Positions 12,533 to 16,342 of a DNA stretch of 17,145 nt are shown here, in pieces. The notes below the pieces were generated by a model, which saw only the letters and a program-made list of their open reading frames with translations, was not told the origin of the DNA and ran no database searches. The first letter of the stretch is position 1. Each line of letters starts with the position of its first letter. This DNA is from a virus (Duplodnaviria > Heunggongvirae > Uroviricota > Caudoviricetes): positions 1 to 17,145 of the IMG/VR virus record IMGVR_UViG_2579778652_000002; one strand, given 5' to 3'. The position numbers and the translations under genes are program-made.

Positions 12533-13909
12533 TCATACGTCAGCCCCTTGTGCATATCGTCTGCCACGCGCAGCAGGTGCATTTGATGCTGTGCAAATCT
12601 GTCTGGCTTCATCCTGGTCACATGCAACAAAGTGTCCGTTACAGAACCGCTGGTAAACCGTACCAAGTGAGCCAAAACGGTTTTTCGTCACGATGATTTC
12701 AGCAAATGGCGCAGCGCTACTGTTCTCGTCATATACCGCTTCCCGATAGAGCATGATGATTGAGTCTGCGTCCTGCTCAATGCTTCCTGAATCACGCAAA
12801 TCTGCGTTTGTCGGGCGTTTGTTTGGTCGCTTCTCAACATCGCGCGAAAGCTGACTCAGGGAGATAACCGGTGTTTTCAGGTCTTTCGCCATCGCCTTCA
12901 GGCTTCCGGAGATGTGAGCAATTGCGAGGTCGTTGCGGTCTGCTTTCGGCTTCTCAATCAGGCCAAGATAATCCGCCATGATGAGTGAGAGGTTTGGATT
13001 TTCCTGTTTGTGCCGTTCTGCGATTGAGCGTATTTCTTCGACCGATAACCGCGAGGCATCGACTACCCATACATCCAAATCTGCAAGCTGACTCATGCCG
13101 TTAGCAACACGTGCCCAGCCCTCGTCATCCATCGATGCAGGATTTCGCAGTACGCTAACCGACATCCTCCCGGCGTTGGCAATGCTTCGCTCTGCAATCT
13201 GCAATGCGCTCATTTCCATTGAGAAAATCAATACTCCGCGCCGGACGTCAGAACCAGGAATAACGCGGCTTGCAACGCCTTCGGCAATCTTCAGCGCCAG
13301 CTCGGTTTTCCCCATACCAGGACGAGCAGCGATTATCACCAGGTCTTCTGCGTTCATCCCTCCGGTGATGGCGTCAAGTTCTTCGATTCCGGTCTTCAGG
13401 GTATCGGACTCTTCTCCGTTCCTCAGACGCCTGTCAAGCGTGTCAGTGTAGTCGGTGATGATTTCCCCTAACCGTACAGGTTTAACCTCGTCACGGGGCT
13501 TTCTGATGGCTGAAAGACGCTTTACAAGTTCATCCATCGCCTGACTCGATGCGTCGATGGTTCCGCTCTGAATTGGTTCACGCATTTCATCCATGATTTC
13601 CAGCACCAGACGGCGGTGATAGTTATCCGCAACCATTCCGGCATATCCCTTCAGGTTTGCGGCACTCGGGCAGTTTTTGCTGGTCATCAGGATTGACGTG
13701 AAATGCTCCTCTCCGCACGCCTCGGCAACCATCAGCGCGTCGATTAGGTTTCTGTTTCGCGCCTGCTTGCGGATAACCTCGAAGGCTTTCCGGTAGAGCG
13801 GAATTGAAAACGCTTCCGGCTCCAGCGTTGCCAGAACGTCACTGGCGGTTGGTGTTAATCCACCAATCAGCAGGCCACCGATAACACTCGCTTCGATATC
13901 CTGTCTCAT
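12533..13909 (-). CDS. Replicative DnaB-type helicase (P22 gene 12-like)
   Basis: 458 aa; Walker [10 protein letters not shown], DnaB-like N-terminal domain; ATGA overlap with the upstream initiator gene. Confidence 0.85.
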
Positions 13910-14736
13910 GCAATCCCCCTGTCTGCAAACTTCCCTTCCCGAACTCCCGTTAACGAGTCTTCTCTCAGCAGGTAATCAAAATCAGCCGTCCAGCCCGTGT
14001 CGTTGTCTCCGAAGTAAAACGGCTTGGCCTGATGTACAAACGCCCTGACATACGCTCTGAAACCGTCCACGTTTGGCGTTTTCAGTTGCGGAATGATTTT
14101 CTTCAGGCGACGTTTGCGTTTCTCGTTGACCGCAACAGCGTGTGGCAGTCTGTCACCGACTTCGGTGTTGTAGGCGTTCAGGAAGGATTCATAGTCGATT
14201 CGTTCTGCCTTGCGACGTTCAGGTTTAACCTGCCCATCGCCGCCCCCGTTAGGGGGTAAGGGGGTATTTGTATTTATTGTCTTTTGTATATTGTCTTTTG
14301 TGTTTGACTGATTCGGTAAATTGCTTTTTACCGATTTGGTGAAGGTTTGTTTTACCGAATTGGTAAATGTTTTACCGAATCCGTTAACTTTCGTTTTCCA
14401 CTCGGAAATGTTTGTATTCATACCAACTTGACGCCCCACCTGAATGAGAACTCCCATTCTGATAAGCTCGTTTTTGGCGGTAGAGCATTTGGTTGGTGCC
14501 ATGCCAGTGAGTTCAGCGAACTGTTCGTTTCCGATCCAATCTATTTTTTTGTTGTAACCGTATGTCTTGCGCCACACAGCCATAACAATCAGTAACTGAT
14601 GTAGAGTAAGTCCAGAAAGCATGGCGGCTTCTAACAGTGTGTTTGCAGTCCGAGTGTATCCATCTTCGAGTTCTGCCACGCGATGCTCCACGACCTCCAG
14701 TTGAGGCCTGTAATCAGCTAACTTAACGACGCCCAT
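13906..14736 (-). CDS. Replication initiator (lambda O / P22 gene 18-like)
   Basis: 276 aa; CAGGAG RBS; contains iterons and an AT-rich stretch within the coding sequence (repeat TFT-x-SVK in the protein), as in lambda O. Confidence 0.8.
14262..14395. repeat. Putative ori: four TTTACCGAAT-type iterons plus adjacent AT-rich region inside the initiator gene
   Basis: Iteron copies at about 14311-14324 (inverted), 14328-14341, 14351-14367 (near-palindrome TTTACCGAATTGGTAAA) and 14371-14388; AT-rich 14262-14305 with tandem ATTGTCTTTTGT x2. Confidence 0.6.
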
Positions 14737-14884
14737 GTTTCACTCCTGCTTTGGCTAGTCTGTAAACACCAACAAGGCGCTCTGCGAACGCCCTGTTATT
14801 TGCTGCGGCTACCACTAATCCCTCAGGTGAATCAGGGTGTCGAATCTCTTCTTTTTCCTGGTATTTCTTACGACGTTTTGTCAT
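14723..14884 (-). CDS. Hypothetical small basic protein (53 aa) between cII and the initiator gene
   Basis: ATG at 14884 with AGGAG RBS 6 nt upstream; translation [53 protein letters not shown]; stop overlaps the initiator start. Below the ORF-track length cutoff. Confidence 0.45.
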   Translation of the reverse strand: MTKRRKKYQEKEEIRHPDSPEGLVVAAANNRAFAERLVGVYRLAKAGVKHGRR

Positions 14885-14892
14885 AATTACTC

Positions 14893-14955
14893 CTGTGGAT
14901 TGATCCAGTCTTTCTACATCAGGCCTCGAAGAATTCGCCGTTCTTCGGGGCTTTT
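14893..14955 (+). ncRNA. oop-like antisense RNA with strong terminator overlapping the cII 3' end
   Basis: Plus-strand hairpin GGCCUCGAAGAA-uucgccg-UUCUUCGGGGCU (14909-14939) followed by UUUUCUUUUG, antisense to the cII C-terminus, as for lambda oop; the 5' end and promoter are uncertain. Confidence 0.45.
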
Positions 14956-15200
14956 TCTTTTGTCAGGTAATCGGCAAGTCGCTTAGTCAGCTCAGCCATT
15001 TCATCGTCTTCGATTCCGTATTCCAGAACAGCCAGCATCATGCTTACCTGCGAGAAGAAACCATTCTTCCATCGGCTTACCTGATATTCAGGAACCCCCA
15101 TTGCTCGAGCGAATGTCTTCTGCCCCATCAGTGCCAGTTTGTTCAGCAAGGCTGACTCGATGCGAGCCGCTTTCTTGCTTTTAGTTGCAATAGTACCCAT
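14919..15200 (-). CDS. cII: CII-type transcriptional activator
   Basis: 93 aa; RIESALLNKLALMG ... QVSRWKNGFFSQVSMMLAVLEYGIEDDEMA, closely similar to lambda CII; AAGGAA RBS. Confidence 0.85.
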   Translation of the reverse strand: MGTIATKSKKAARIESALLNKLALMGQKTFARAMGVPEYQVSRWKNGFFSQVSMMLAVLEYGIEDDEMAELTKRLADYLTKEKAPKNGEFFEA

Positions 15201-15215
15201 AGATAATTTCCTTAA
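15175..15215 (+). promoter_or_regulatory. pRE-like CII-activated promoter
   Basis: TTGC-ttttag-TTGC (15175-15188) on the strand antisense to the cII 5' end, 13 nt, then -10 GATAAT (15202-15207), oriented toward cI. Confidence 0.6.
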
Positions 15216-15276
15216 TGATTAGATAGAGTTGGCTTCGCAAAGAAACGCAAAACCATAGAGATTTGTTTCTGGTAAT

Positions 15277-15308
15277 GCCCTTTTTCAGGGCGGGGATGTG
15301 TAAGAGCG
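15277..15308 (-). promoter_or_regulatory. nutR (boxA CGCTCTTAC plus boxB GCCCTGAAAAAGGGC)
   Basis: On the minus strand just downstream of cro: CGCTCTTACACATCCCCGCCCTGAAAAAGGGC, matching lambda nutR boxA/boxB. Confidence 0.8.
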
Positions 15309-15316
15309 TTAATAAC

Positions 15317-15547
15317 TTAAGCGGCCATTAATTCAGGCCAGATGCTTTCCCAATCAACCGGATGAAGGTCTTTGCGAGTCACTTCACCATTGCTGAACTT
15401 CTCAATCAGAACACAAAGTGCTGCGCCCAATTCATGATTACGGCTAAGTGCTTTCCTCAAATAGCCGATAGAAGTTCCGCACTTGGTGGCAAATTCTCTC
15501 TGCTCTTCCAGTGAAAGGGAGTTCAGATACAAGCGGAGTTCTTCCAT
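15317..15547 (-). CDS. cro: Cro-like HTH repressor
   Basis: 76 aa; HTH (FATKCGTSIGYLRKALS); GGAAGGAG RBS; divergent from cI across the operator region and upstream of nutR and cII. Confidence 0.65.
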   Translation of the reverse strand: MEELRLYLNSLSLEEQREFATKCGTSIGYLRKALSRNHELGAALCVLIEKFSNGEVTRKDLHPVDWESIWPELMAA

Positions 15548-15655
15548 TTGCTATCTCCTTCCCGTTGTTGAATAAGATGAGTTTACCTGTAGGTAAAAAG
15601 CAAATCAATACCCATAGGTTATTTACCGGCAGGTAATCAAAGATAGAATTAAATC
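15548..15655. promoter_or_regulatory. OR operator region with divergent pR (toward cro) and pRM (toward cI)
   Basis: Palindromic operators TTTACCTGTAGGTAAA (15583-15598) and TTTACCGGCAGGTAAT (15622-15637). pR on minus: -35 TTGATT (15608..15603), 17 bp, -10 TAAACT (15585..15580). pRM on plus: -10 TAGAAT (15644-15649) placing the start near the cI ATG (leaderless, as in lambda). Confidence 0.7.
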
Positions 15656-16342
15656 ATGGATAAATACGAACAAAGACGACTAAGGCTGATAGAGATAAGA
15701 GACCGATTCTGTAATGGAAAGGCCTCAGAGTTGGCTCGTCGAATAGAAAGGGAACCATCATACGTTTCCAGAATGCTGTATCCGGAAGGAAAAAGCGGAA
15801 AAAAACGCATTGCTGACGATATGATGGAACTAATTGAAAAATCTTTTAATCTCCCACGCGGATGGATGGACATGCTTGCAGATGGTAAAGCTGGAGCTAC
15901 GGACCATCTTGAGTTTGCGGGTAACGTTCGTGCGGGTTTTGTTCCGGTAATTGGTGAAGCCGTTTTGGGAGTTGATGGCTCAGTGGATATGATTGAATTC
16001 AGATCCGGTTGGTTAAGCATCTACAGCGGCGATAAAGATGCTTACGGTCTGAAGGTTAAGGGTGACAGCATGTGGCCAAGGATTCAGTCAGGAGAATATG
16101 TTGTTATTGAACCAAATACGCCAGTACATCCAGGTGATGAAGTCTTTGTAAGGACCAAAGACGGTCACAACATGATAAAGATCATGAACAAAACAAGAGA
16201 CGGTGATTATCAGTTTAGTAGCATAAACAGTGATCACCGCCCAATCACTCTTCCTGTTGAAGAAGTTGATAAAATGCATTTTGTTTCAGCTATTGTGAAA
16301 CACACCAGGTACGTAGACCAGGACGATCTGCCAAAAGTTTGA
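15656..16342 (+). CDS. cI: CI-type prophage repressor (HTH plus S24 LexA-like peptidase domain)
   Basis: 228 aa; N-terminal HTH (ASELARRIEREPSYVSRML); C-terminal S24 motifs (KVKGDSMWPRIQSGEYVVI, MIKIMNK); divergent from cro. Confidence 0.85.
   Translation: MDKYEQRRLRLIEIRDRFCNGKASELARRIEREPSYVSRMLYPEGKSGKKRIADDMMELIEKSFNLPRGWMDMLADGKAGATDHLEFAGNVRAGFVPVIGEAVLGVDGSVDMIEFRSGWLSIYSGDKDAYGLKVKGDSMWPRIQSGEYVVIEPNTPVHPGDEVFVRTKDGHNMIKIMNKTRDGDYQFSSINSDHRPITLPVEEVDKMHFVSAIVKHTRYVDQDDLPKV

Follow-up and report, generated by a model that had tools for sequence, protein, structure and literature searches.

Background

The closest described systems are the junctions between cII and the replication genes of lambda, P22, HK97 and their relatives. 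In lambda the oop RNA reduces the amount of CII by forming a duplex that RNase III cuts (Krinke and Wulff 1987, as cited in later papers). Hayes et al. 2012 (PMC3349717) described the layout 'cII-oop-orf-O-like', named the gp53 homologues, and used a 33-nt block, their 'sequence 5', to align 23 lambdoid phages. The P22 oop RNA was sequenced in 2026 and is 63 nt long (PMC13397905), and an OOP RNA at the same position appears in the transcriptome of the BTP1 prophage (PMC7067206). The HK629 record has oop annotated next to a gp53 homologue.

This work concerns one such junction in a lambdoid prophage, within a stretch of 17,145 nucleotides (IMG/VR record IMGVR_UViG_2579778652_000002) that we call the window. 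We believe the interval between cII and the initiator gene is a standard junction, where the immunity module of an HK97/P22-type lambdoid prophage meets the replication module and two known elements lie head to head. We put the probability of this reading at about 0.8. Both features, a small gene and an oop-type antisense element, are real but already described, and their layout here is a correct rediscovery. Since both elements are known the locus itself matters little, and its small gene is one more identical example of a very common prophage ORF. The importance lies with the 53-aa protein. Many prophages of E. coli and Salmonella carry it, Stx phages among them; purifying selection on it is clear, and its gene always stands first in replication modules of the helicase type.

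The locus and its small gene

The early-right operon of the window's lambdoid immunity and replication region runs on the minus strand. The features of the region are these, with the activator, the small gene, the initiator and the helicase in their order of transcription.

15656-16342, plus strand: cI-like repressor, in the window's immunity region
15317-15547, minus strand: cro
14919-15200, minus strand: gene of a cII-family activator (Pfam Phage_CII, E = 4e-30); its last codons hold the antisense terminator
14921-14963, plus strand: predicted intrinsic terminator of the antisense RNA, a 14-bp stem at 14921-14953 followed by a T-run, from a hairpin scan
14895-14962, plus strand: predicted oop-type antisense RNA, about 63-68 nt, its start placed by comparison with the 5' ends of lambda oop and of the sequenced P22 RNA
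14877-14909, plus strand: conserved boundary block of 33 nt (Sf6 'bsq5', HK620 'sequence 5') with the pO -10 and the oop 5' end; 30/33 as in lambda
14879-14887, plus strand: predicted pO promoter, extended -10 TGTCATAAT, the same motif as at lambda pO
14859-14864, plus strand: putative weak -35, TGGTAT, placed by its 17-nt spacer, within small-gene codons 7-9
14890-14894, minus strand: Shine-Dalgarno AGGAG of the small gene, 5 nt upstream of the ATG at 14884
14723-14884, minus strand: small gene of 53 aa, HK97 gp53 / PHROG 1331 family, TAA stop included, with the ATG start of the ORF list
14725-14723, minus strand: TAA stop of the small gene
14723-14747, minus strand: coupling junction, from the initiator SD to the small-gene TAA, as read from the sequence
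14747-14743, minus strand: initiator SD AGGAG, 6 nt before the initiator ATG and inside the last codons of the small ORF
14736-14734, minus strand: initiator ATG; the 14-nt overlap with the small gene ends at the TAA of the latter
13906-14736, minus strand: O-like replication initiator, 276 aa (Pfam Phage_rep_O, E = 4e-36; PHROG 345, E = 2e-106)
12533-13909, minus strand: DnaB-type helicase

Between the cII stop (14919) and the initiator start (14736) there are 182 nt; the lambda cII-O gap is 32 nt. The original prediction, made from the sequence of the window, had given these spacings as about 180 bp and about 30 bp and was right. It also described a 53-codon ORF with a well-spaced AGGAG and a stop overlapping the initiator start, and every part of this holds (14723-14884, a 5-nt spacer, a 14-nt overlap). 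It went wrong in calling the ORF unannotated, a label that was true only of the ORF track it worked from. RefSeq E. coli genomes list the protein as hypothetical protein WP_000166961.1, and many phage records annotate it as well.

The PHROG 1331 profile, 53 positions long, matches the protein at E = 1.4e-37 along its whole length (residues 1-53), and the protein is 100% identical to HK97 gp53 and to Sf6 gene 42. The identical protein is also annotated in ST104, mEp213, Stx2 phage 1717 and HK629. We will call it gp53. A tblastn search gives 97 phage records with the protein, and in 61 the amino-acid identity is 99% or above; the records with the ORF include HK97 gp53, Sf6 gene 42, ST104 ORF27, mEp213, HK629, Stx2 phage 1717 and many Stx phages. 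The exact protein sequence occurs on at least 1000 contigs. Literature searches for the accessions of the protein, or for 'HK97 gp53', returned no functional information.

The gp53 family is narrow. A HMMER profile run against 1.84 billion representative proteins retrieved only 24 clusters, all of them small proteins of the same family, and gave no link to a known family. Pfam returned zero families at E <= 1, and neither a profile search of PDB sequences nor a Foldseek search of PDB structures gave a match. The AlphaFold2 model, of moderate confidence (pLDDT 67), has a charged, unstructured stretch of 20 N-terminal residues and then a long helix, 21-49. The N-terminus is probably disordered and the remainder would form one long C-terminal helix, a model too simple for fold inference.

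The small ORF codes for a selected protein

To compare the ORF across relatives we used 17 loci recovered from contigs of one genome per species, with 57-100% amino-acid identity. The set includes Edwardsiella, Trabulsiella, Yokenella, Citrobacter, Enterobacter, Chimaeribacter, Serratia, Rahnella and Brenneria. The original prediction had named frameshifts in close relatives as evidence that would count against the ORF. That check has now been run and the ORF is intact in all 17 distant loci; none of these divergent Enterobacterales sequences has lost the frame, the ATG, the SD or the stop (17/17). Pairwise differences at codon positions 1, 2 and 3 are 0.24, 0.16 and 0.49, so variation at the third position is 2-3 times that at the other two. 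The median dN/dS is 0.18, and it is 0.13 for the central codons when both overlapping ends are excluded. The most constrained part of the protein is the central helix, far from both overlaps. The small ORF is a genuine gene under selection at the level of amino acids.

It could be argued that the ORF is not a gene at all, and that it is conserved by the pO promoter, by a recombination 'boundary sequence' and by the signals of the initiator RBS. The argument has real points in its favor. Both ends of the ORF carry such signals, and synonymous variation is suppressed at codons 8-11 and again at alignment columns 48-56, which correspond to codons 46-53 in the window. Of 80 IMG/VR copies, 66 have the same nucleotide sequence, and the ORF lies within a conserved island bounded by mosaic junctions. 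Signals of this kind do not explain the excess of third-position changes or the low dN/dS of the central codons, nor a reading frame, start and stop that survive in every locus down to 57% identity. The invariant residues A27, A34, R36 and R42 are each encoded by 3-5 synonymous codons. Codon choice varies where the residue does not, and therefore the constraint acts on the protein and not on an RNA or DNA signal. We consider it very improbable that the ORF is no gene.

The mRNA of the small gene contains a strong 13-bp hairpin (AACAGGGCGUUC GCA GAGCGCCUUGUU) at 14770-14798 on the minus strand, in codons 29-38, which encode the most conserved part of the protein. The hairpin is probably incidental, because it is lost in distant relatives, where the synonymous codons differ.

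Probable coupling to the initiator

The small gene would be the first of the replication module, transcribed from pR after cII. Of the 17 genome loci, 15 have an overlap of 14 nt with the initiator gene and two have one of 17 nt, and synonymous variation is suppressed across the embedded initiator SD and the overlap. Translational coupling of the two genes is the natural inference from the overlap alone. Since the stop overlaps the initiator start by 14 nt and the initiator SD lies in the last codons of the small gene, ribosomes would be expected to feed initiator translation; those ending the small gene would pass on to the initiator start. Folding of the mRNA around the initiator start gave no convincing sequestration of the initiator SD. 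We also considered a frameshift fusion of gp53 and the initiator and dropped it, as the overlap shows neither a slippery site nor a stimulator at a suitable distance.

A stronger form of the coupling argument would make the ORF a translated leader only, one that delivers ribosomes to the initiator and whose peptide has no function of its own. The conserved stop/start overlap and the initiator SD embedded in the ORF are what such a leader would look like, and in P22 an unrelated small ORF, orf48 / DUF2740, occupies the same slot with an 8-nt overlap. A pure leader, however, would not preserve its amino-acid sequence, and the strongest constraint in gp53 falls on the central helix, away from the overlaps. 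A leader and nothing more is improbable in our opinion.

The predicted antisense RNA and its terminator

The original prediction noted an oop-like hairpin and U-run on the plus strand at the 3' end of cII. They are present, and the assignment can now be made by homology to lambda and P22 instead of resemblance alone. Judged from its sequence the plus-strand element is an oop homologue, and the hairpin is the terminator of a predicted oop-type antisense RNA. The plus-strand hairpin scan gives a stem of 14 pairs, 6 of them G-C, at 14921-14953, followed by TTTCTTTTGT. The scanned region contains 2 terminator-like matches against 0.9 expected from shuffles. The predicted RNA, 14895-14962 on the plus strand, is antisense to the 3' end of cII, which ends at 14919 on the minus strand and is recognized as cII by Pfam. 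Its fold has an energy of -27.2 kcal/mol (z = -5.6), and none of 200 shuffles is as stable. Window positions 14898-14927 match the P22 oop RNA exactly over its first 30 nt. There is no T-run on the minus strand after the hairpin, and therefore it is a one-way terminator for plus-strand transcripts.

The related junctions tell the same story. Under a strict hairpin-plus-T-run rule the antisense terminator is found in 16 of 23, where shuffles predict 1.2. The terminators fall into a long-stem and a short-stem class that cannot be aligned in register, and RNAalifold on 14 terminators from different loci returned no consensus. The short-stem class (lambda and six gp53 loci) was tested alone for this reason; the window's own terminator belongs to the long-stem class. 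In the short-stem class 100% of cells are paired, with compensatory changes in 6 of 8 pairs. No shuffle of 500 reaches the observed pairing or covariation score, and registers slid out of place are only 34-55% paired.

On another reading the hairpin would terminate or attenuate rightward transcription of the minus-strand operon beyond cII, and would not be the end of an antisense RNA. It does lie at a gene boundary, and hairpins can work on both strands. The T-run, however, is on the plus strand only; a sense-strand terminator appears in none of the 23 related loci; and in P22 the antisense-strand RNA has been sequenced, with this 5' end and with its terminator in the same position. We give almost no weight to a sense-strand terminator.

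A search of window positions 14000-16000 with Rfam 15 at E <= 10 returned only sub-threshold chance matches, such as ctRNA_p42d at 19 bits against a threshold of 50 bits. There appears to be no Rfam model of oop. With no matching model in Rfam, membership in the RNA family rests on homology to the lambda and P22 sequences. A weak match to 'MIR8706' at 14311-14380 is a direct repeat of the initiator gene. The repeats there are worth describing in their own right: 3-4 direct repeats of about 20 nt (TGTTTTACCGAAT...), 20-24 nt apart, lie at 14301-14397 within the gene of the O-like initiator. They resemble origin iterons, by analogy with lambda, whose ori is inside O.

If the oop-type reading is correct, an antisense transcript of about 65 nt would begin near 14895-14898 and stop at the hairpin and U-run, within the 14 final codons of cII. 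It would base-pair with the cII mRNA at its 3' end, RNase III would cleave the duplex, and the lower level of CII would push the phage toward lysis. The CII-lowering part of this scheme would be carried over from lambda. What the analysis supplies is a set of concrete coordinates for a predicted oop-type RNA at a gp53-type junction.

The predicted pO promoter and the boundary block

Window positions 14877-14909 (TTTGTCATAATTACTCCTGTGGATTGATCCAGT) match the lambda pO -10 and the first bases of oop at 30 of 33 positions, and the Sf6 record marks this block as boundary sequence bsq5. The CAT in the extended -10 TGTCATAAT is the complement of the ATG of the small gene, and thus the RBS and start of gp53 are homologous to the RBS and start of lambda O. 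Read by eye, the sequences of 16 among the 17 genome loci (the exception is L021) and of the five named phage junctions have a -10-like hexamer (CATAAT, TATAAT, TAGAAT, TAAAAT or CATTAT) across the start of the ORF. At 16-17 nt upstream of the -10 the related loci have TGGTAY, or the better TTGAAT, TTGAGT or TTGAAA. A consensus promoter scan of the window called no promoter at the predicted pO, where the -35 TGGTAT is poor. We infer that the TG extension probably compensates for the weak -35, as it would at lambda pO.

The unrelated gp53 and orf48/DUF2740 genes share TACCAGGA(A/C)AAA at codons 8-11 (window 14851-14863, and the equivalent place in loci L002 and L026). Its complement lies at -35 distance from the pO -10, and synonymous sites are frozen there in the gp53 loci with YQEK. 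The shared motif may be a -35 or another site of pO, or it may be a trace of a shared N-terminus.

Just inside the 5' end of cII, at 15175-15188 on the plus strand, TTGCTTTTAGTTGC fits the TTGC-N6-TTGC motif and is a predicted CII-binding site of the P_RE kind. A CII-binding motif is annotated at the equivalent place in mEp213 and Sf6. The second terminator-like match of the scan, 15162-15178, overlaps this motif and is probably there by chance.

Mosaic junctions and replication modules

The gp53 gene is found with two types of initiator. We sampled IMG/VR as the best 80 loci encoding identical gp53. In 36 of them gp53 is followed by a Phage_rep_O-type initiator and then a DnaB-like helicase gene, and in another 36 by a second initiator type and then the same kind of helicase gene; the remaining 8 are truncated or disrupted. 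The second type matches PHROG 345 and has no Pfam match to Phage_rep_O, and its N-domain matches PHROG families annotated 'DnaD-like helicase loader'. The two types have different DNA-binding N-domains and share only their first ~10 residues (window 14707-14736; ~2649-2680 in loci L007, L009, L012, L014 and L022). Because those residues are common to both, the mosaic junction lies about 27-30 nt inside the initiator gene and not at its start.

The nucleotide alignment of the 80 loci agrees with this placement. An island of conservation begins at about -75, where the oop terminator lies, and extends to about +175, a point 27 nt inside the initiator gene, and identity falls sharply on both sides. 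Choosing the loci by identity of the protein accounts for part of the conservation within the ORF, but the island boundaries are still informative. These boundaries fit the old idea of such blocks as recombination linkers between modules.

It is important to realize how closely gp53 keeps company with the helicase. A DnaB-like helicase gene lies downstream in 17/17 genome loci and in 72 of the 80 IMG/VR loci. Lambda-P-type loci are different. Among the best 80 sampled, neither gp53 nor orf48 occurs in any, and the cII-O gap is 32-34 nt in 56/56. Since gp53 accompanies the helicase modules and is absent from the 80 lambda-P loci, the ORF belongs to helicase-type replication modules and not to cII.

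Two observations on the sampled contigs stand apart from this. In the IMG/VR locus L047 an unrelated ORF of 192 aa (MMSDSPRATASDSL...) follows a shortened type-A initiator, where the others have the DnaB-like helicase gene. Two contigs of the genome set, L006 (JAEZIN010000021.1, 'MAG: Bacillota bacterium') and L009 (CACSKA010000001.1, 'Chryseobacterium sp.'), carry enterobacterial lambdoid prophage sequence. Their gp53 identity is 100% and 83% respectively, and the DnaB-like helicase of L006 is 99% identical. Both contigs are most likely mis-binned or contaminated assemblies.

What the small protein might do

The original prediction had offered two possible roles for the small ORF, as a regulator of replication or of the lysis-lysogeny decision. 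The comparative data favour a part in replication over a part in the lysis-lysogeny decision. Tentatively, and at well under even odds, we judge the most likely role of gp53 to be that of an accessory factor of replication modules that bring their own DnaB-type helicase. This idea rests on co-occurrence, in samples of mostly near-identical sequences and the best 80 loci per scan. A more specific version, which we hold as more doubtful, is that gp53, and by analogy orf48/DUF2740, might be a small cofactor or minimal adaptor that helps the O-like initiator to recruit or load the phage helicase, in part replacing what lambda P does for host DnaB. It is suggested by the strict synteny, by the probable translational coupling and by the lack of the ORF in the sampled lambda-P modules. 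The protein may be a missing replication factor of P22/HK97-type phages.

The competing idea is that gp53 is tied to cII as a lysis-lysogeny regulator, for example a cIII-like protease inhibitor or a modulator of CII. Its gene comes directly after cII on the same early transcript, and its size and amphipathic helix recall lambda CIII, a protein of 54 aa. The comparison does not carry over to sequence families, as Lambda_CIII is unmatched by gp53, in keeping with the empty Pfam search. Identical gp53 proteins are found beside diverse cII sequences, so that the ORF follows the replication module and not the cII allele. The converse case also exists: 8 lambda O-P loci carry a cII closer to the window's than to lambda's, and they do so without the ORF. 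We regard a regulator of this sort as unlikely, and our preferred reading of gp53 remains that of a component of the replication module, produced in concert with the initiator.

Comparison with known systems

The lambda OOP unit (pO-oop-tO) is built like the predicted unit in the window. It is antisense to the 3' end of cII, its -10 overlaps the start of the next rightward gene, and its terminator lies in the last codons of cII. The lambda cII-O junction has the same geometry relative to oop, and the gp53 SD sits where the RBS of lambda O does in the shared block. The differences are in the details of the RNA. The window's RNA is predicted at about 65 nt while lambda oop is 77 nt, and it lacks the long 5' stem-loop of lambda oop. 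Its overlap with cII is 42 nt, and that of lambda oop is 55 nt (PMC3349717). The -35 regions of the two are not alike, and the terminator stem is of the long 14-bp class, unlike lambda's in sequence. The genes differ as well: lambda has no small ORF, its O starts 32 nt after cII, and it has the P loader instead of a phage DnaB-type helicase.

The oop terminator of P22 is in the equivalent place to the window's and has a different stem that still pairs. In P22 and phage L, orf48, which the mEp043 record assigns to Pfam DUF2740, takes the slot of gp53 between oop and the initiator, with an 8-nt stop/start overlap, and it pairs with the same two initiator types as gp53. Only the first codons and TACCAGGA(A/C)AAA are common to the two genes. 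We rejected gp53 as a homologue of orf48/DUF2740, given an hhalign probability of 0.05% and the lack of a DUF2740 match in Pfam. The 'orf48' of PMC12373910 is an unrelated library number.

HK97 gp53, Sf6 gene 42 and ST104 ORF27, the PHROG 1331 genes, are also among the closest known systems. Their position and their 14-nt overlap with the initiator are the same as in the window, and nothing substantial differs.
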